From the NCBI GenBank assembly GCA_001618615.1, contig LKHB01000181.1, positions 2,210-66,209 on the forward strand: a DNA stretch of 64,000 bases, written 5' to 3'. The position numbers and the translations under genes were made by a program. The notes under the pieces are model-generated. The model ran no database searches. It was not told the origin of the DNA and was given only the letters and a program-made list of their open reading frames with translations. Positions 1 through 8,155 of this stretch are shown piece by piece (the first letter of the stretch is position 1; each line of letters opens with the position of its first letter). This stretch comes from Candidatus Fermentibacter danicus (GTDB taxonomy: Bacteria > Fermentibacterota > Fermentibacteria > Fermentibacterales > Fermentibacteraceae).

Positions 1-497
1 TCTCCTCGTAGGTGAGCTGCTGGTCCTCGCGGAGGAGGAAAGGTTCGCGGTAATGGATGGGCAGCCTGTTGATGGCCTCCTCGAGAGAGGCTCTGAGTTC
101 GCGTCTGCCGGACTCGTAGTGAGGGGTCGTGTTCACCGGGCTGGTGAGGTTTACCGAGTCCTCGGGAACCTGCATCCAGTGTGACCGCCTGCGCCATTCC
201 TTCTTCGCCAGGTTGCTCGCGATCGTGAAGATCCAGGTGACCAGCGGCCTCTCCGGGTCGTAGTGGTCACGATACTGGTGTACCCTGCAGAAGGTGACCT
301 GGAGGAGTTCCTCGGCGTCGTCCTCGTTGCCGAGCATCCTGATCAGCAGAGAATAGACGGGGCCCTGGAACCTCCTGATCACTTCCGAGAAGGCAGCCTC
401 GTCCCCCTTGCAGAGCGCGATCATCAGTTCGGAGTCCGTCCGCTCGTCCTTTACCTTCTGGCGACCCTTCACGAGTCTGACAGCCACTTCAACCTCC
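1..497 (-). CDS. ECF-type RNA polymerase sigma-70 factor. N-terminal ~165 aa are visible; the C-terminus runs past the window start.
   Basis: Seen: the reverse-strand translation ...EDDAEELLQVTFCRVHQYRDHYDPERPLVTWIFTIASNLAKKEWRRR...LPIHYREPFLLREDQQLTYEE matches sigma region 2 and region 4 (LPxxxRxxFxLxxxEGLSYEE). A GGAGG motif lies 7 nt upstream of a GTG at ~497. Not in the ORF track because the ORF is open at the window edge. Confidence 0.75.
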
Positions 498-560
498 GAC
501 GGCTGTTGTGAATGCTCTCGTGTGCATATACCGGAACCGGACGCCGTTGTTCCAGGCCGG

Positions 561-1820
561 TCATTCCAGCAGCATCGAGACGGGCATGGCGAGACTCACG
601 GCCGCGATGAGCAGAATGACCGCGATACAGACGGCGTTGTAGAACCTCCCGTTGACGTGGTCGCCCATCTGGGACCGGTCGTTGACCAGGATCAGCATGA
701 AGACGAGGACCACGGGCAGTACGATTCCGTTCACCACCTGCGACCAGAACATGACCGGCATGAACGGGACGCCCGGTATGAGAACCGCTCCGGCCCCCAG
801 AACCAGCAGCGCGGTGTACATGATGTAGAATTGCGGGGCGGAATCGAAGTCCCTGTCGACTCCGGACTCCCATCCGAACGCTTCGCAGACCGTATAGGAG
901 GTGGAGAGCGGCAGGATGCTGGCCGCGAAGACGGAAGCGTTGAGAAGGCCGAAGGCGAACAGATAGGAGCTGAGCCTTCCGGCCAGGGGTTCCAGCGCCC
1001 TGGCGGCATCCGCCGCGCTGTTCACCACGATGCCGGCCGAGTTCAGCTTGACTGCGCAGACTATCATGATGCACGATGCCACGAGGCTCACCATGATGCA
1101 TCCGAGCACGGTGTCGAGCTTCGAGTAGGCGTATTCCCCGATGGGGATGTTCTTCTCGGCCACCGAGGCCTGCTGGTAGAACTGCATCCAGGGAGCGATC
1201 GTGGTGCCCAGCAGCCCTACAGCCATGATCAGGTAGCCGCTGTCGAAGTTCAGGTCGGGTTTCACGAACGCCGTCGCGATTTCGCCCGCATCCGGCCCGA
1301 CCACGAAGAGGGTGAGCGGATAGGCGAGATAGAAGATGCAGGCCACGAGGAAGACACGCTCCACGGAGCGGTAGCTGGCCTTTGTCACCAGGAGCCATAC
1401 CAGCGCGGCGCAGACTGGTATCACCGCGACCGGCGGCAGCCCCAGGATCTCGCCGGCCGAGGCTATCCCGGCGAACTCGGCCATGATGTTGGCAAAATTC
1501 GTTACCAGGATCAGCGCCATGAGAGCGAAGGTGACCCTGACCCCGAACCGCTCCCGGATCATGTCGGAGAGACCCTTGCCGGTTACCACGCCCATCCTGT
1601 TCACCATCTCCTGCACCATCACCAGGAAGACGGTGATAGGGATCATCAGCCAGAGAAGCCGCAGACCGAACTGCGCTCCGGCCTGACTGTAGGTCGCAAG
1701 GCCGCCCGCGTCGTTGTCGACATTGGCGGTGATCATCCCGGGCCCCATGACGGCCAGGAAAACGGCTATGCGGCGGAGGATGCCCCGCCTTCTGCCTTCG
1801 GCGAGCCGCAGGGCCGTCAA
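561..1820 (-). CDS. mntH: NRAMP-family divalent metal (Mn2+/Fe2+) transporter
   Basis: 419 aa polytopic membrane protein. The N-terminal GPGMITANVDNDAGGLATYSQAGAQFG is the NRAMP signature (DPGN-like motif), and the length and hydrophobicity profile are typical of MntH. Confidence 0.9.
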   Translation of the reverse strand: MTALRLAEGRRRGILRRIAVFLAVMGPGMITANVDNDAGGLATYSQAGAQFGLRLLWLMIPITVFLVMVQEMVNRMGVVTGKGLSDMIRERFGVRVTFALMALILVTNFANIMAEFAGIASAGEILGLPPVAVIPVCAALVWLLVTKASYRSVERVFLVACIFYLAYPLTLFVVGPDAGEIATAFVKPDLNFDSGYLIMAVGLLGTTIAPWMQFYQQASVAEKNIPIGEYAYSKLDTVLGCIMVSLVASCIMIVCAVKLNSAGIVVNSAADAARALEPLAGRLSSYLFAFGLLNASVFAASILPLSTSYTVCEAFGWESGVDRDFDSAPQFYIMYTALLVLGAGAVLIPGVPFMPVMFWSQVVNGIVLPVVLVFMLILVNDRSQMGDHVNGRFYNAVCIAVILLIAAVSLAMPVSMLLE

Positions 1821-1882
1821 AACCTGCCGCTCCCGGCGGGGGAGCGGTGTGAGGCGGGGATCATGGTCCCGGCCATGCCGGC

Positions 1883-3157
1883 CTAGTCCGCCAGCCTCGC
1901 GAACCGCGGCAGCAGTTCGTCAAAGGCGTGCTCCAGCGTCACTATGCCCTCCATGCAGAAGCGGTCGTTCACCACGGGCACGGCGTGCAGCCTGAACTTC
2001 ATGAAGATGGCTGCCACCTCGTCGAGGTCGTCGTCCGGCGCGAGCGTGGCCAGCCTCCTGTTCATGAGCCCGGAAAGGGGCGTTTCCGGTGCCGATCCGA
2101 GTATGTGGCGCAGGGAGACGACCCCTGCCAGATGGCCTTCATCGCCGTCGAGGCAGTAGATGTAGCTGATGAACTTGATCTCCGCAACCTTCTCCTCGAG
2201 TATGCGCCTGGCCTCCAGGACCGTGGCCCCGGCGGGGCATGTGATGTACTCGACCGTCATGAGCGTGGCCGCGGTATCGTCCTCGGCCTGGGAGAGCTTC
2301 TCGATCCGCTCCCTCTCCTCGTCCTCCATCTCGGCCATGATGTCCTGCTGGGCGTATTCCGGCAGCAGTTCGACGAGATCGACAGCGGCTGCCGGCTCCA
2401 TCTCCTCGATGATGTCGGCTGCGGTAGCGGAGTCGAGATCCCTTATGATGGCGGCCTGCACGTCCTCCTCCGCCTCCTCCAGTACGTCCGCGAGCTGCTC
2501 GGTGTCGAAGGATCTGACCATGGCCAGGCGCTCTCCAGGATCGAGTTCCTCGATGATGTCCGCCAGCTCACCGGGGTGAAGCTGCTTGAGCTGCTCCTGG
2601 CGGAGCGTCAGCTTGACCGGCTCCCTGCCGGGCGCCGGAAGCGGCTGCACGTATTTCCAGGAGACGAGTTCGTTGTCGAGCTGCCTGTGGAATGCCGAAA
2701 CGACCCTTCTCAGGCCGCCCTCGACTCGCAGGCGCCTCGCCAGGCCCGTCATTCCGATGTCCACGTGCACCAGGAACATCCTGCCGGAGTGGACCAGAAG
2801 ATGTATGTCGTTTACACGAACCACCTTGGCCCCTTTGACGTCTACCACCTGCTTGTCCAGCAGCCCCTTCTGGAGAAGGTGCATCTCCGGGCGCGGAAGA
2901 CCAGACAGCCGCCCTGGCTGGCGCTTCAGCGCACTTCCGGAGAGCAGCGCATCGCAGAGAGCCGCATCCATCCTGATGGACACCGGCCCCTTCCTTGTAG
3001 AGAAGACAGCCGCTTCGATCTCGGGGAACTTCTCGGAGAACGATGCTACCAGATCGATCAGTCTGCCCGAGAACGCCCCATCCTCCGAACGGACTCTTCT
3101 TCCCAACAGGTCGGACATGAAGAGGAAAACGCTCCCGCCCGTCATCCCCATCGCCAT
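1883..3157 (-). CDS. Soluble MgtE N-terminal domain plus tandem CBS-domain protein with a PRC-barrel-like N-terminus and no membrane domain
   Basis: 424 aa. The acidic helical region (ELADIIEELDPGERLAMVRSFDTEQLADVLEEAEEDVQAAIIRDLD...) resembles MgtE_N. The C-terminal ~120 aa (TVEYITCPAGATVLEARRILEEKVAEIKF...LHAVPVVNDRFCMEGIVTLEHAFD) is a CBS pair. No TM segments. Immediately upstream of mntH on the same strand. An alternative start at MSDLLGRR (~3118) is possible. Confidence 0.65.
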   Translation of the reverse strand: MAMGMTGGSVFLFMSDLLGRRVRSEDGAFSGRLIDLVASFSEKFPEIEAAVFSTRKGPVSIRMDAALCDALLSGSALKRQPGRLSGLPRPEMHLLQKGLLDKQVVDVKGAKVVRVNDIHLLVHSGRMFLVHVDIGMTGLARRLRVEGGLRRVVSAFHRQLDNELVSWKYVQPLPAPGREPVKLTLRQEQLKQLHPGELADIIEELDPGERLAMVRSFDTEQLADVLEEAEEDVQAAIIRDLDSATAADIIEEMEPAAAVDLVELLPEYAQQDIMAEMEDEERERIEKLSQAEDDTAATLMTVEYITCPAGATVLEARRILEEKVAEIKFISYIYCLDGDEGHLAGVVSLRHILGSAPETPLSGLMNRRLATLAPDDDLDEVAAIFMKFRLHAVPVVNDRFCMEGIVTLEHAFDELLPRFARLAD

Positions 3158-3178
3158 CCCCGCCTCCCGTTCCCGGTC

Positions 3179-3595
3179 CTATTCGCCGATTATCTTGATC
3201 AGGACGCGCTTGCGCCGTCTGCCGTCGAACTCGCCGTAGAAGACACTCTCCCAGGGCCCCAGATCGAGTTCCCCGCCCGTTATCGCCAGGACGGCCTCCC
3301 TGCCCATGATCTGCCTCTTGAGATGGGCGTCGGCGTTGTCCTCCCCGCGGTTGTGCCTGTAGGAGGAAACCGGTTCGTGCGGAGCGAGCTTCTCCAGCCA
3401 GTCGTCGAAGTCCCTGTGCAGGCCGGGTTCGTCGTCGTTCACGAACACGCTGGCGGTTATGTGCATTGCGTTCACGAGGCAGAGCCCCTCCTTCACCCCG
3501 CTTTCCCTGACGGCGGACGAGACCTCCCGGGTGATGTTCACGAATCCTCTCCGCGAGGGGATCTCGAACCAGAGCTCCTTTCTGAGCGTCCTCAT
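3179..3595 (-). CDS. yjbQ: YjbQ/UPF0047 family protein (secondary thiamine-phosphate synthase-like)
   Basis: 138 aa. Motifs [32 protein letters not shown]...[45 protein letters not shown] are typical of the YjbQ family. Confidence 0.8.
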
Positions 3596-3605
3596 CGCTC
3601 TCCTC

Positions 3606-3926
3606 CTATTCCATCTCCGGGTCGAACAGGGAGATGCATGTCTCTATCCCGCCAGTACCTGCGGCGCTGTCCCTGATGAGCGCCACAGCGCTCTCCAGCA
3701 TTCCGGAGGCTCCGGCACGGGTTCCGCACGCACAGGCGGCCGCCACCCAGGCCCGTGCGGGCAGATCCGCAGGCCCCGTCTGCGATACGGAGAAGCCCAG
3801 GTTTCCGAGCCTGTCCCGGATCGAGTTCAGTTCGCCCCTACGGTCCTTCAGCGTCCTCGCGCCGTGGAAGCGGAGATCCGCCACCAGCACGCCTATCCAC
3901 GCCCTGGGGGAGGGCTCGCGGCTCAT
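3606..3926 (-). CDS. DUF503 (YlxP-like) small protein
   Basis: 106 aa. The pattern [41 protein letters not shown]...AWVAAACA...[10 protein letters not shown] fits the DUF503 fold family. Assignment is from memory of the family pattern only. Confidence 0.5.
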
Positions 3927-3945
3927 CTGCGGCGTTCCCGGCCCG

Positions 3946-6180
3946 TCATGCTCCGTGCTCCGGTGCGTCCCGCTTCAGGAAGAGGGCCGCGAGGGGGGGC
4001 AGGGAGAGCGATACGGAGTGAGCCATCCCGTTGCGCGGCTGCGGGTCGGATGCCGTTCCTCCGAGGTTTCCGGTTCCGCTCCCGCCGTAGGAGGATGCGT
4101 CGGAATTGAGCAGCTCCCTGTAGAAACCGCCCTCCGGCACGCCTATCCTGTACCCGTGTCTGGGTTCGGGGGTGAAGTTGAAGACGCAGATCACGCATCC
4201 GCCCCCGGAGTCCCTCCTGGCGAAGGAAACCACGGTGCTGTCCGTATCGCTGAAATCGATCCACCTGAAGCCCGCCGGATCGTGATCCAGTTCGTGCATG
4301 GCGGGTTCGCGTGACAGGAGGGAGTTCAGATCCCGGACGAGGGACCTGATCCCCCGGTGCGGGGCGTATTCGAGCAGGTGCCAGTCCAGTTGCGAATCGT
4401 GGTTCCACTCCGACCTCTGACCGAATTCGCCGCCCATGAAGAGCAGCTTCTTCCCGGGATGAGCCCACTGATAGCACAGGAGGAGTCTGAGATTGGCGAA
4501 CCTCCTCCAGTCGTCGCCGGGCATCTTCTCCAGGAGGCTCGACTTGCCGTGCACGACCTCGTCGTGGGAGAGCGGCAGTATGAAGTTCTCGCTGTAGGCG
4601 TAGAGCTGCGAGAAGGTGAGATTGTTCACGTGGTACTTCCTGTGGACGGGATCCAGCGCGAAAAAGCCGAGCGTGTCGTGCATCCAGCCCATGTTCCACT
4701 TGAAAGAGAAGCCGAGTCCTCCTCCATCCGGGGGTCTGGTCACGGAGGGCCAGGCGGTGCTCTCCTCCGCGATCGTGAAGGCGCCCGGAAACAGGCTGTG
4801 AACCCGGTCGTTCAGCATCCGGATGAAGGCGACGGCATCGAGGTTCTCCCTGCCGCCGTAGCGGTTGGGGATCCATGCGTCCCTCCCGCGCGAATAGTCG
4901 AGGTAGAGCATCGAGGCCACCGCGTCCACGCGCAGCGCATCGATGTGGAACCTGTCGAACCAGGAGATGGCCGCGGAGATCAGGAAGCCGCGGACCTCGT
5001 TCCTTCCATAGTTGAAGATGAGCGTTCCCCAGTCCGGATGCCTTCCGAGCCTCGGATCATCGTGCTCGTACAGGGCGGTGCCGTCGAACCTGGCCAGGCC
5101 GTGGGCGTCGGAGGGGAAGTGGGCCGGGGTCCAGTCGAGGATGATCCCGATTCCCGCCGCATGCGCCCTGTCCACGAAGCGGGCGAAATCCTCCGGAGAG
5201 CCCAGCCTGCTCGTTGGAGCGAAGTATCCCAGAGTCTGGTACCCCCAGGACCCGTCGAAGGGATGCTCCATCACCGGGAGCAGTTCGATGTGGGTGAAGC
5301 CCATATCCGATACGTACGGCAGGAGCGCGTCCGCGAGTTCCATCCAGCCGAGGAACGGCCGGCCGTCGTCCGGTCTGCGCCAGGAGCCGGCATGGACCTC
5401 GTAGATCGAGACCGGGGAACTGAAGCGCCCGGCGGCGGCTCTGCGGGTCATCCATTCCCCGTCGGTCCACTCGAATCCCGATGCGGATGAGACTACGGAA
5501 GCCGTGGCGGGGCGAATCTCGAACCGGGAGGCCACCGGGTCGGCCTTCTCACGGACGACCCCGTCGCATCCGAGGATCGCGAACTTGTAGAGATCGCCCT
5601 CCCGGAGCCGCGGCACGAACAGCTCCCATACGCCCGACGCCCCTCTGGGGCGCATCGGGTGCCTCCTGCGGTCCCAGGCGTTGAAGTCGCCTGTCACGCT
5701 CACCTGTCCTGCGTTGGGAGCCCAGACGGAGAAGAGCACCCCTTCCACCTCCCCGGCCTTCCAGGGCCTGCCTCCGAAGACCTGGTGCATGCGTTCGTGC
5801 CTGCCTTCGTTGAACAGGTGAAGATCGAGTTCACCGAGCTGCGGCAGGAAGCAGTAGGGGTCCTCCGTGGCCCATGTTGACCCGTCCTCCTTCTCGAAGA
5901 CGAGAAGGTAGGCGAACGGCTGTTCGGGGCCGGGGGAGGACCACACGAAGAGACCGTCGCCGTGTACCCGGGTCATCGGGCTCCCGGCGGGGGATGTGTC
6001 CGGGGAGGTGTCGGTGCGGGCGATCCATGCCCTCGTGGCCGCAGGGCAGAAGGTCCGGATCTCCAGCCTGCCGGAGGGCCCTCCGAGCGGGTGCATGCCG
6101 AGCAGGGCGAATGGATCGGCGGGCGTCGCCTGGACTATCGACCGGATCTCGGAAGCCGTCAGGACGGTCTCGGGTTGCAT
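3946..6180 (-). CDS. glgB: 1,4-alpha-glucan branching enzyme (GH13)
   Basis: Track ORF 3946..6273. Likely start at MQPETVLTASEIRSIV (~6180). Contains the N-terminal CBM48-like region, the GH13 catalytic core (HIDALRVDAVASMLY, GFSFKWNMGWMHD) and a C-terminal domain, at about 745 aa. Confidence 0.9.
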   Translation of the reverse strand: MQPETVLTASEIRSIVQATPADPFALLGMHPLGGPSGRLEIRTFCPAATRAWIARTDTSPDTSPAGSPMTRVHGDGLFVWSSPGPEQPFAYLLVFEKEDGSTWATEDPYCFLPQLGELDLHLFNEGRHERMHQVFGGRPWKAGEVEGVLFSVWAPNAGQVSVTGDFNAWDRRRHPMRPRGASGVWELFVPRLREGDLYKFAILGCDGVVREKADPVASRFEIRPATASVVSSASGFEWTDGEWMTRRAAAGRFSSPVSIYEVHAGSWRRPDDGRPFLGWMELADALLPYVSDMGFTHIELLPVMEHPFDGSWGYQTLGYFAPTSRLGSPEDFARFVDRAHAAGIGIILDWTPAHFPSDAHGLARFDGTALYEHDDPRLGRHPDWGTLIFNYGRNEVRGFLISAAISWFDRFHIDALRVDAVASMLYLDYSRGRDAWIPNRYGGRENLDAVAFIRMLNDRVHSLFPGAFTIAEESTAWPSVTRPPDGGGLGFSFKWNMGWMHDTLGFFALDPVHRKYHVNNLTFSQLYAYSENFILPLSHDEVVHGKSSLLEKMPGDDWRRFANLRLLLCYQWAHPGKKLLFMGGEFGQRSEWNHDSQLDWHLLEYAPHRGIRSLVRDLNSLLSREPAMHELDHDPAGFRWIDFSDTDSTVVSFARRDSGGGCVICVFNFTPEPRHGYRIGVPEGGFYRELLNSDASSYGGSGTGNLGGTASDPQPRNGMAHSVSLSLPPLAALFLKRDAPEHGA

Positions 6181-6497
6181 ATCCCACTTCCCCGGGGTTC
6201 GTGACCGATCGGTGCGCGGCAGGAAAGAGCCGCCCGGAACGACGAGTATAACCGGCACGGGCCCCGGGGGCACCCGCCGGTCTCCGGTTCCCGGCAGGGG
6301 AGCGGCTGCATCATCCGTTTCAGGCTCCGGCGGATCGGGAACAACAGCGTTTCGAACCCGCCGGCCGCCACGCCCGAACCGGCGGCGCCCCGGGCTGTGT
6401 ATCGTGTCAGATGCACATCCGCCCGTTACGGATTATAATGGGAGGACACAGGGCAGGTATTCGTGGAACCCGGGGAAGCCAACAAGTACGAAAGGGG

Positions 6498-7010
6498 ATG
6501 CTCGTGATCATCTACGACTATGGCGGACAGAACGATTTCGACGCCTTCGGCCTCTTTGCCGGTATAGCCGCTTTCGGAGTCGTCGCCGTGATATTGCTCG
6601 GTGTACTCTCAGCGGTGATCTTCTACCTGTTGACGATGCAGAAGGCCCTGAACCGCTGTTCCCCGGCAAACCGGACACTGGAGCCCGGTATGGTCTGGCT
6701 TCAGCTCATTCCCGTTTTCGGCATGGTCTGGAGCTTCATCGTCGTTCTGAAGACCAGCGAATCACTCGGGGCGGAGCTGCGGCACCGCAACATCCCCGGG
6801 ATGGAGAGCAGCCCGGGCAGGGGAGTCGGTCTGGCAAGCTGCATCCTGTCGGCCTGGGTCTCGCTGGTGGGGTGGATACCGTATGTGGGACAATGCCTGT
6901 CTTCCCTTCCCGGGCTGGCCGGCATTGTGTGCTGGATCGTCTACTGGGTCAGGATTTCCAGGACCGTCCGGTTGCTCGACCAGTCGCCTGCAAACGCCGG
7001 AGCGGCATGA
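6498..7010 (+). CDS. Hypothetical small polytopic membrane protein
   Basis: Track ORF 6411..7010. A plausible start is MLVIIYDYGG (~6498). Three to four hydrophobic segments. No recognisable family. Confidence 0.4.
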   Translation: MLVIIYDYGGQNDFDAFGLFAGIAAFGVVAVILLGVLSAVIFYLLTMQKALNRCSPANRTLEPGMVWLQLIPVFGMVWSFIVVLKTSESLGAELRHRNIPGMESSPGRGVGLASCILSAWVSLVGWIPYVGQCLSSLPGLAGIVCWIVYWVRISRTVRLLDQSPANAGAA

Positions 7011-7085
7011 TCAGAGGCGGATCGAGCGCAGTCGGAGCGTCTGTGCAGTCGGCCTGACGGTGGGCGGGAACCGGGAGCCGGATAT

Positions 7086-7113
7086 GAAAAGGCGGAGCGT
7101 TTGCCCCGCCTTT
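7086..7113. terminator. Candidate bidirectional intrinsic terminator between convergent genes
   Basis: Seen: AAAAGGCGG-agcgtttgcc-CCGCCTTTT, a 9-bp perfect inverted repeat flanked by an A-tract on one side and a T-tract on the other. It sits between the 3' ends of the 6498..7010 (+) and 7133..7480 (-) genes. Confidence 0.45.
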
Positions 7114-7132
7114 TCTATACCCAGGAAATCGT

Positions 7133-7480
7133 CTACGCCTGGGGCTCCCCGGACTGATCGGGCTTGAGCAGGTTGAGCTTGAAGCCAAACTGGCCGATGA
7201 GCGGCAGGGGCACGGCCTTGCCGCCGAAGCCGTTGAGGGCGCCTATGACGAGCAGCACGAGGCAGAACAGGGCCCAGAGCCATCCGATGACGGGGATGAT
7301 GCCGAGGAGCATCGCTATGAGGAGAATGATGGACTGCTGGCAGTGATAGAGCACGAACCTGTTCTCCTTGCCGGTCAGGTAGGCGATGAGAAGCCCTATC
7401 CAGGTGATGTAGGCGATTCCGGCCATCGTCTTGCCCTCGTCGATCTCCTGCTGCGTGAAAGTGTAGTTCGGATCCATCAT
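7133..7480 (-). CDS. DUF4870-like small membrane protein
   Basis: Track ORF 7133..7555. Likely start at MMDPNYTF. The pattern KTMAGIAYITWIGLLIAYLTGKENRFVLYHCQQSIILLI is typical of the DUF4870 family of two-TM proteins. Confidence 0.55.
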   Translation of the reverse strand: MMDPNYTFTQQEIDEGKTMAGIAYITWIGLLIAYLTGKENRFVLYHCQQSIILLIAMLLGIIPVIGWLWALFCLVLLVIGALNGFGGKAVPLPLIGQFGFKLNLLKPDQSGEPQA

Positions 7481-7657
7481 ACCCCTTTCGAGTCGAGCAC
7501 GGCCGAGCCGCGCCTCCCATAGCGTGCGACCCGCCCGAGCGGGACCGCCCTCCACGGAACGGGAACCAGTTACTCACGGACACGATATTGTCGTTTATGT
7601 CCGGCGTAGTGTCAACTCCACCGCAACCGGCATATAATAAGGCTTGCCGGACGAACG

Positions 7658-8155
7658 GTGAGCCCCTGCATGGCAGAGCATGAAAGGCCGGAGATGACGT
7701 ACGAAGAATCCAACCTCAAGCTGATTGCCATTTTCCATTACGTCCTGGCCGCCTTCATCGCGATGTTCTCGACGATACCCATGCTGTATCTCGGCATGGG
7801 GATATTGATCAGCCTCGCTCCAGCGGTCTTCGAATCCTCCGGCCCGTCGGCCCGGGATGTTCCTCCGGTCATTCTCGGCTTGCTCTTCGGAGCGATAGGC
7901 CTTGCCGGAACGCTGCTGGTCCTTGTTTTCGCAGCCCTCCTGTTCTTCGCGGGGCGCAATCTCCAGAAGGCCAGGCACATGGATTTCTGCACAGTCGTGG
8001 CGGCAGTGTCGTGCCTGTTCATGCCCCTGGGAACCATTCTCGGCGTTTTGACTCTCCTGGAACTGAACAAGAAGGAAGTGCGGGAGCTGTTCGACCCGCC
8101 GGCACCGGGCGGCCCTGTGCCCCCGGTTGCATCCAGCCCCCGCGTCGTTGACTGA
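7658..8155 (+). CDS. Hypothetical membrane protein (4 predicted TM, Pro-rich C-terminus)
   Basis: 165 aa hydrophobic ORF with no family recognised. Coding status is inferred from length, hydrophobic periodicity and its position between genes. Confidence 0.4.
   Translation: MSPCMAEHERPEMTYEESNLKLIAIFHYVLAAFIAMFSTIPMLYLGMGILISLAPAVFESSGPSARDVPPVILGLLFGAIGLAGTLLVLVFAALLFFAGRNLQKARHMDFCTVVAAVSCLFMPLGTILGVLTLLELNKKEVRELFDPPAPGGPVPPVASSPRVVD

Follow-up and report, generated by a model that had tools for sequence, protein, structure and literature searches.

A pore-less MgtE-like protein encoded directly upstream of a predicted NRMT-type transporter in Candidatus Fermentibacter danicus

Shin et al. 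2014 (PLoS Genet, PMC4072509) defined the NrmT group of Nramp-family transporters, most members of which adjoin a gene for a homologue of MgtE's N-terminal cytoplasmic domain in what were termed 'mgtE-nramp operons'. The gene pair considered here lies at 3157..561 on the minus strand of a 64,000-nt stretch of Candidatus Fermentibacter danicus DNA (contig LKHB01000181.1 of GCA_001618615.1, positions 2,210 to 66,209), referred to throughout as the window. It consists of a gene for a soluble MgtE-like protein, hereafter the partner, followed by the gene for a predicted Nramp-related Mg2+ transporter (NRMT). That this pair is an instance of the published two-gene 'mgtE-like / nrmT' module is well supported. 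Taken as a whole, the evidence leans towards a module in which the partner acts as a regulatory subunit of the transporter, with the extracytoplasmic function (ECF) sigma factor gene that follows belonging to a separate unit. The idea of feedback regulation was already published in 2014, and what is new here is the comparative detail. Locus labels such as L001 and protein labels such as P0233 are names of this analysis.

Two transporters of this group are known to function without the MgtE-like protein. The NrmT of C. acetobutylicum rescues Mg2+-transport-deficient B. subtilis in the absence of its partner (PMC4072509), and EleNRMT, the Nramp-related Mg2+ transporter of Eggerthella lenta (PDB 7QIA/7QIC; Ramanadane et al. 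2022, PMC8806188), transports by itself in proteoliposomes. Since the transporter works alone in both settings, the partner is accessory rather than catalytic. In characterised NRMT relatives the uptake of Mg2+ (and Mn2+) is not coupled to protons, and EleNRMT also transports Mn2+. Shin et al. speculated that the partner serves in cytoplasmic feedback regulation or as a metal chaperone (PMC4072509); it is not discussed in the EleNRMT paper (PMC8806188), and no later paper settling its function was found in the literature searched.

The gene order in the window is that of the Ca_c0685 operon of C. acetobutylicum and of ACP2976-ACP2977 in A. capsulatum, with the MgtE-like gene directly upstream of NrmT. 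Like the window pair, the A. capsulatum pair has no M-box riboswitch. The window pair differs from the operons of Shin et al. in its Candidatus Fermentibacter host and in a partner of ~420 aa that carries an N-terminal tandem PRC barrel. In addition, the MgtE Mg2+-ligand positions are substituted in the subclade to which the window partner belongs. No paper mentioning a PRC barrel together with MgtE was found in the searchable literature.

Identity and conservation of the gene pair

The pair and its spacer are laid out as follows.

1883..3157, minus strand: partner gene (PRC-PRC-MgtE_N-CBS-CBS, soluble, 424 aa); open reading frame (ORF) with ATG start and stop codon at 1885..1883
1821..1882, minus strand: 62-nt spacer from partner gene to NRMT gene, from the sequence
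561..1820, minus strand: NRMT-type SLC11 gene, 419 aa, TTG start; ORF, and public gene call with the same start

ORFs and public gene calls agree with the original prediction, made from the sequence alone, that the partner gene precedes an Nramp-family gene on the same strand, at a distance of 62 nt. The partner gene is called identically in public assemblies of the same genome, and a protein annotated as 'CBS domain-containing protein' in Candidatus Fermentibacter daniensis matches its product at 100% identity.

The downstream protein matches the Pfam Nramp family (PF01566, E=1.4e-98) over profile positions 1-356 of 357. The original prediction took its gene for mntH, encoding a Mn2+ transporter. 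That identity is contradicted by the residue signature, by affinity to EleNRMT and by scores below the cut-offs of the NCBIfam MntH models (NF001923, 127 bits vs 430; TIGR01197, 72.7 vs 272.5). Among all PDB sequences the best relative is EleNRMT (7qia_A, 324.5 bits, E=9.4e-96), whereas canonical Nramp/MntH/DMT structures reach at most 85.7 bits. The hallmarks of NRMTs are the replacement of Asn by Gly in alpha1, of Ala by Thr and Met by Ala in alpha6, and of His by Trp in alpha6b (PMC8806188). In the window transporter, alpha1 reads D37-A-G-G40, aligned to NDAGG of EleNRMT (D55, G58), where canonical Nramp proteins have DPGN. Alpha6 reads T206-T-I-A209-P-W211, which is the TTIAPW of EleNRMT (T224) in place of the canonical A-x-x-M-P-H. 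E115 (alpha3) and Q361 (alpha10) correspond to E133 and Q379 of EleNRMT and are nearly invariant in the family alignment. The binding- and coupling-site signature (Asp, Gly, Thr, Ala, Trp, Glu, Gln) is identical in the two proteins. The prediction of the window protein as an NRMT-type, Nramp-related Mg2+ transporter is well supported. This corrects an annotation trap, in that Nramp-family genes with DAGG and TTIAPW would encode magnesium transporters and not MntH. It also removes the suggestion that the locus represents metal sensing distinct from MntR/Fur control: because the transporter is an NRMT, the arrangement is no alternative to MntR/Fur control of manganese uptake.

The original prediction proposed conservation of the gene pair in relatives as a check, and the pairing is conserved when approached from either side. 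A partner profile searched against one genome per species gave 80 loci from many phyla, and in 73 of these the same strand carries an NRMT homologue downstream. The two genes are directly adjacent in 71, and a DEAD-box helicase gene intervenes in two of the 73. The helicase insertion is seen in a single lineage (L005 7912-9234, L007 7260-8546, L008 3322-4200). Seven partner loci have no NRMT, comprising three contig ends and four real absences. At one of the latter, L048 (5977-9328, from a Bacillota metagenome-assembled genome), a DUF502 gene comes after the PRC-MgtE_N-CBS gene, and next to it lies a downstream gene for a CNNM/CorC-type transporter (PF01595 + CBS + CorC_HlyC), another Mg2+-related family. 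The NRMT neighbours are uniform in signature: the fourth position of the alpha1 motif is Gly, not Asn, in 73/73, and alpha6 Met occurs in none of the 71 whose match covers the alpha6 motif.

Approached from the NRMT side, the partner gene is present in 71 of 80 metagenome loci, and the nine others have 716 nt or less of upstream sequence. In two metagenome loci (L106, L113) the partner gene lies downstream of the NRMT gene on the opposite strand, so that the two are convergent. In L017, L033, L039, L072 and L081 the stop codon of the partner gene overlaps the start codon of the NRMT gene or abuts it (TGATG in L081), which suggests coupled expression, or translational coupling, in some lineages. 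No partner-NRMT fusions occur among the matches listed; the overlapping genes are in different frames. Short tblastn matches that appeared to be partner homologues without the PRC part are really ORFs of 413-440 aa with PRC-like N-termini.

As the pairing is conserved across many phyla and in both directions, a functional link between the partner and the adjacent Nramp-family transporter is strongly backed, and the NRMT class can be reliably recognised by a neighbouring MgtE_N-CBS protein. The original prediction proposed that the stand-alone sensor could regulate the activity or the expression of the transporter. The functional link stands, but control of expression is unlikely, since no DNA- or RNA-binding domain was found in the partner by Pfam, NCBIfam or fold.

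Architecture of the partner and its ligand positions

The partner can be divided into five parts, all encoded on the minus strand.

2933..3130: first PRC-barrel, residues ~10-75
2642..2875: second PRC-barrel with two short helices, residues ~95-172 (alignment, conservation, fold)
2282..2599: acidic MgtE_N helical domain, residues 187-292 (Pfam, Foldseek, charge count)
1937..2281: CBS pair, residues 293-407 (Pfam, mapping of the ATP site of Thermus thermophilus MgtE, TtMgtE)
1886..1936: C-terminal helix, residues 408-424, the equivalent of the MgtE plug helix over its first turns (helix 408-423 in the AlphaFold2 (AF2) model, TtMgtE alignments)

ORF, Pfam and hydropathy agree with the earlier description of a soluble, 424-aa protein with MgtE_N and a CBS pair and no membrane domain. 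MgtE_N (PF03448) is matched at residues 193-290 with E=6.7e-22, and the two CBS domains with E=3.3e-17. The MgtE_N domain is strongly acidic, with 33 Asp/Glu against 7 Lys/Arg in 106 aa. The protein has no hydrophobic segment (maximum Kyte-Doolittle 19-residue mean 1.22), and the pore domain PF01769 was not detected in it by Pfam. A C-terminal membrane domain hidden in a longer ORF had been considered, and there is none, the protein ending at residue 424. This terminus falls ~11 residues past the equivalent of TtMgtE D250, at the onset of the MgtE plug helix, and leaves the protein without a pore. The NCBIfam model for full-length mgtE (TIGR00400) is matched over profile positions 24-248 of 450 only, with a score of 119 vs the 232.75 cut-off. 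Among solved structures, the MgtE cytosolic domains 2oux, 2yvy and 8gps come nearest in sequence as well as in fold, and the AF2 model (pLDDT 80.3) gives Foldseek matches to MgtE cytosolic domains at E ~1e-18 and TMt ~0.7. The N domain and CBS pair share the fold of those of T. thermophilus MgtE (2YVX/2YVY/5X9G). In contrast to that protein, the partner lacks the five-transmembrane pore, has a truncated plug helix and carries the tandem PRC barrel as an addition.

The PRC-barrel-like N-terminus of the original prediction can be described more closely as a tandem PRC barrel on the basis of its predicted fold, which is that expected of PRC barrels. Pfam PF05239 gives the window partner 18.1 bits vs a gathering score of 21.2, while 6 of 11 homologous N-termini reach E<0.01, the best at 2.4e-9. 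A profile of the N-terminal module searched against PDB sequences gave one marginal, uninformative match. The PRC-barrel proteins CdpB1/CdpB2 of Archaeoglobus fulgidus (8QZO, 8ONW), described in their PDB entry title as a heterodimeric complex, show a resemblance of fold only, with 16% sequence identity and an unrelated biology. The second barrel, with 21 of 78 positions at least 95% conserved, forms together with MgtE_N the best-conserved part of the protein, and is marked by the motif DKQ[IV]VD..GAKV.RVND ... VD.G..GL.RRL.

The tandem-PRC module is not confined to soluble proteins. A profile of the module searched against 1.84 billion representatives matches 1123 proteins at E<=1e-10, mostly of 405-455 aa. 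However, 8 of the best 150 matches are 595-656 aa long and have five extra C-terminal hydrophobic segments. These PRC-MgtE proteins are as follows.

P0211, P0215, P0233, P0246, P0249, P0250, P0253, P0266 (~595-656 aa), at loci L164-L170

Four of the five that were scanned show the pore domain PF01769, the exception being P0250. These proteins, for example P0233, P0266 and P0211, are collinear with the partner over all 420 aa (PRC-PRC-MgtE_N-CBS). As judged by sequence, the soluble partner is the pore-less counterpart of this PRC-MgtE subfamily, and its description as a soluble protein homologous to the entire cytoplasmic region of such a protein is well supported. Two of the four readable contexts of full-length PRC-MgtE genes are directly upstream of an Nramp-family gene (L164, L169/L170), and two are not (L165, L167/L168). 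The NRMT signature is present in one of the two Nramp-family neighbours. The other, the protein at L169 5833-7071 (also L170), has GVGASG in place of NDAGG and keeps the alpha6 motif as TTLAPW; its missing alpha1 Asp is a residue described as universally conserved in SLC11.

In a neighbour-joining tree of close homologues the full-length and soluble forms separate. With diverse sampling neither form is monophyletic (0/30 and 3/30 bootstraps). These rough trees thus uphold neither a clean order from full-length to soluble nor any particular number of pore losses.

Ligand residues of the regulatory Mg2+ sites Mg4, Mg5 and Mg7 of MgtE (PMC10200709) were compared at six acidic positions. TtMgtE D91, D92, E166, D226, D247 and D250 correspond in the window partner to A256, A257, K328, R389, H410 and D413. 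The full-length PRC-MgtE proteins keep D91, D92, E166, D247 and D250. At these same five positions 71-94% of 124 verified NRMT-adjacent partners likewise keep an acidic residue, and the retained cluster supports a role in Mg2+ sensing for the NRMT-partner family at large. A family-wide loss of the MgtE Mg2+ ligands had been drawn from the 112 closest homologues, and the 124 NRMT-adjacent partners confine this loss to the window subclade. The nucleotide contacts present a different picture. TtMgtE Y170 and R187 contact the phosphates of ATP (PMC5529423), and their equivalents in the partner, Tyr332 and Arg350, do not vary among the 112 closest homologues. In the window subclade a conserved H410-x-x-D413, with LLP after it, takes the place of the D-x-x-D that the C-terminal helix carries in MgtE and most NRMT partners; it may form a new metal site or a surface for contacts.

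The partner as a candidate regulatory subunit

In the reading preferred here, the soluble partner would be a detachable regulatory subunit that acts after translation. It would bind a cytosolic ligand and then change its conformation or oligomeric state, in the manner of the MgtE cytosolic domain, and in this way would tune NRMT-mediated cation uptake and exert feedback control. Mg2+ at an acidic cluster of the MgtE type, modulated by an adenine nucleotide, is the plausible ligand for most NRMT partners. In the Fermentibacter subclade the protein may instead sense a nucleotide or use a different metal site; either one (the latter for example at H410/D413) seems more likely than the canonical Mg2+ cluster. 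We infer this mechanism from the domain architectures, the NRMT identity of the transporter, the reciprocal linkage of the two genes and the Mg2+ riboswitch found with some relatives. If the partner does gate the NRMT, a channel's sensor domain would be regulating a transporter of a different fold. A more specific version, in which a pore-less MgtE has been re-used as the gating subunit of a LeuT-fold NRMT and the ligand in this subclade has switched to an adenine nucleotide and/or the H410-x-x-D413 site, is put forward only tentatively. Such a switch, if real, would couple Mg2+ uptake to the energy state of the cell rather than to free Mg2+.

Several observations weigh against regulation of the NRMT by a ligand-sensing partner. 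Only D413 is kept of the six acidic MgtE Mg2+-ligand positions, and with five of the six substituted, MgtE-style Mg2+ sensing cannot be assumed for the window partner. The ATP site is also altered, the stacking Phe being replaced by Leu and the ribose-binding Asp by His, and the ligand of the window partner is genuinely uncertain. Co-expression of the A. capsulatum partner gave no better rescue in B. subtilis (PMC4072509), and no evidence of physical interaction between partner and NRMT was found in the literature searched. The partner occurs without NRMT at L029, L048, L057 and L059, and the window has no M-box. Finally, the PRC module is found on full-length MgtE proteins that do not adjoin NRMT genes. 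This weakens the suggestion that the PRC barrels are an NRMT-specific docking module, as a module borne by MgtE proteins encoded away from NRMT genes is not a dedicated device for docking to NRMT.

Three other functions for the partner can be considered, each of them improbable. The partner could be a metal chaperone or buffer whose acidic MgtE_N domain takes Mg2+ or Mn2+ as it leaves the NRMT and passes it along or buffers it, with no gating involved, which is the alternative named by Shin et al. 2014 (PMC4072509). The excess of acidic over basic residues noted above for the N domain (33 against 7) fits such a role, and the co-expression signals favour it as much as they favour a regulatory subunit. 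However, a CBS pair with invariant nucleotide-contacting Tyr and Arg, set in the architecture of a gating domain, points to signalling, and the larger part of the specific metal ligands is lost in the window subclade. Mg2+ is present in the cytosol at millimolar concentration and is not known to require a chaperone there. Binding of metal in passage therefore seems an unlikely main function.

The partner might alternatively be an obligate structural subunit, needed for the folding, stability or activity of the NRMT. The near-universal, two-way co-occurrence of the genes and their overlap in some lineages would be expected of such a subunit. However, the C. acetobutylicum NrmT complements B. 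subtilis without its partner (PMC4072509), and EleNRMT, whose binding-site signature the window NRMT shares, is active alone in proteoliposomes (PMC8806188), so there is little probability that the partner is indispensable in this sense.

It is similarly doubtful that the partner regulates some other protein, for instance through mixed dimers with a full-length MgtE encoded elsewhere, in which it would be a dominant regulator without a pore, and that its position beside the NRMT gene reflects only a common Mg2+-responsive expression. MgtE cytosolic domains do dimerise (PMC10200709). Homology to the cytoplasmic part of PRC-MgtE proteins, some of which are encoded beside NRMT genes and some not, extends along the entire partner, and a CNNM/CorC gene lies two genes downstream of the partner gene at one NRMT-less locus. 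However, the linkage is very tight across phyla and specific to NRMT, and there is no MgtE pore gene in the neighbourhood examined.

The comparative results make the regulatory role of the partner, proposed in 2014, more testable. They provide three natural states for comparison, namely PRC-MgtE alone, PRC-MgtE beside an NRMT, and the pore-less partner beside an NRMT. The window subclade is a useful contrast, as its Mg2+ ligands are replaced and its nucleotide-contacting residues kept.

The ECF sigma gene, expression signals and upstream genes

The remaining features of the locus are as follows.

1..487, minus strand, leaves the window: ECF sigma-70 family gene (GTG start at 487, GGAGG 5 nt upstream)
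527..554, minus strand: ECF-type promoter-like motif TGGAAC-N17-GTATA, upstream of the sigma gene
3595..3179, minus strand: YjbQ/UPF0047 gene (ORF + Pfam, upstream context)
3926..3606, minus strand: DUF503 gene (ORF + Pfam, upstream context)
6273 or 6180..3946, minus strand: glgB (ORF + Pfam, upstream context)

An ECF sigma factor gene does lie downstream of the transporter gene, as originally noted, though the gap is 73 nt and not about 60. The part of its product encoded within the window, 163 residues, scores 59.8 against the NCBIfam model TIGR02937 (cut-off 42.9). The full product is 197 aa in public assemblies and has sigma regions 2 and 4 only (Sigma70_r2 and r4). Among 160 loci the sigma gene adjoins the NRMT gene only in the two closest relatives, L001 and L081. 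In these and in the window, both boxes of TGGAAC-N17-GTATA (554..527) are invariant and the spacer between them is variable. The looser pattern GGAAC-N16-18-GTATA has a single match in the 64-kb window (553..527), with 0.02 expected by chance. In 170 loci TGGAAC-N17-GTATA occurs only at this place before the sigma gene in these relatives, and all other loci are without it. The motif is probably an auto-regulated promoter of the ECF type.

Beyond the left edge of the window (L161 13261-14587), a 150-aa ORF without a Pfam match overlaps the sigma gene by 4 nt, and a gene for a 289-aa PDZ-domain protein comes next. The 150-aa ORF may possibly encode an anti-sigma factor. Because the sigma gene is adjacent to the pair only in the closest relatives and has its own conserved promoter-like motif, it most likely forms, with the 150-aa ORF and the PDZ gene, a unit of its own outside the partner-NRMT module, and a shared transcript, about which the original prediction was uncertain, is improbable. 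Some read-through from the NRMT gene into the sigma gene is possible, as no terminator-like site was found.

The riboswitch or Fur signature looked for upstream of the pair is likewise absent. Neither an M-box nor a yybP-ykoY riboswitch was found by an Rfam scan of positions 1..8000 of the window (no match at E<=1), and there is no match to a Fur box with up to 3 mismatches. Among the 27 loci scanned, an M-box lies directly upstream of the pair in three, and a Mn riboswitch in none. According to Shin et al. 2014 (PMC4072509), an M-box upstream of the NrmT pair is frequent and not required. No sigma-70 promoters or intrinsic terminators were found on the minus strand in 1..3700, although this is a weak test.

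The original prediction in its full form, that a Mg2+/nucleotide sensor controls the expression of MntH, perhaps from one transcript with the ECF sigma gene, is highly improbable: the genes are close and co-directional, with no terminator-like site between the NRMT and sigma genes, and the A. capsulatum NRMT appeared to prefer Mn over Mg (PMC4072509), but the NRMT signature of the transporter, the failure to detect a nucleic-acid-binding domain in the partner, the rarity of the ECF neighbour with its own promoter-like motif, and the lack of both yybP-ykoY and a Fur box all stand against it.

The spacer between the two genes contains a 7-bp hairpin (CGCUCCC / GGGAGCG, 1846..1828, minus strand) that covers the Shine-Dalgarno sequence of the NRMT gene (GGGAG, 1834..1830). 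As a regulatory element this hairpin was rejected; its fold is no better than that of shuffled sequences (z=-0.81), and neither L001 nor L081 conserves it.

Upstream of the pair, glgB and the DUF503 and YjbQ/UPF0047 genes (3179..6273) are co-directional with the partner gene and separated by gaps of just 10-21 nt. The order glgB-DUF503-YjbQ/UPF0047-partner recurs in L001 only, and these genes are context outside the conserved module. Given the small gaps and the order shared with L001, transcription from a promoter before glgB is possible, and such a promoter may serve the partner-NRMT module as well.

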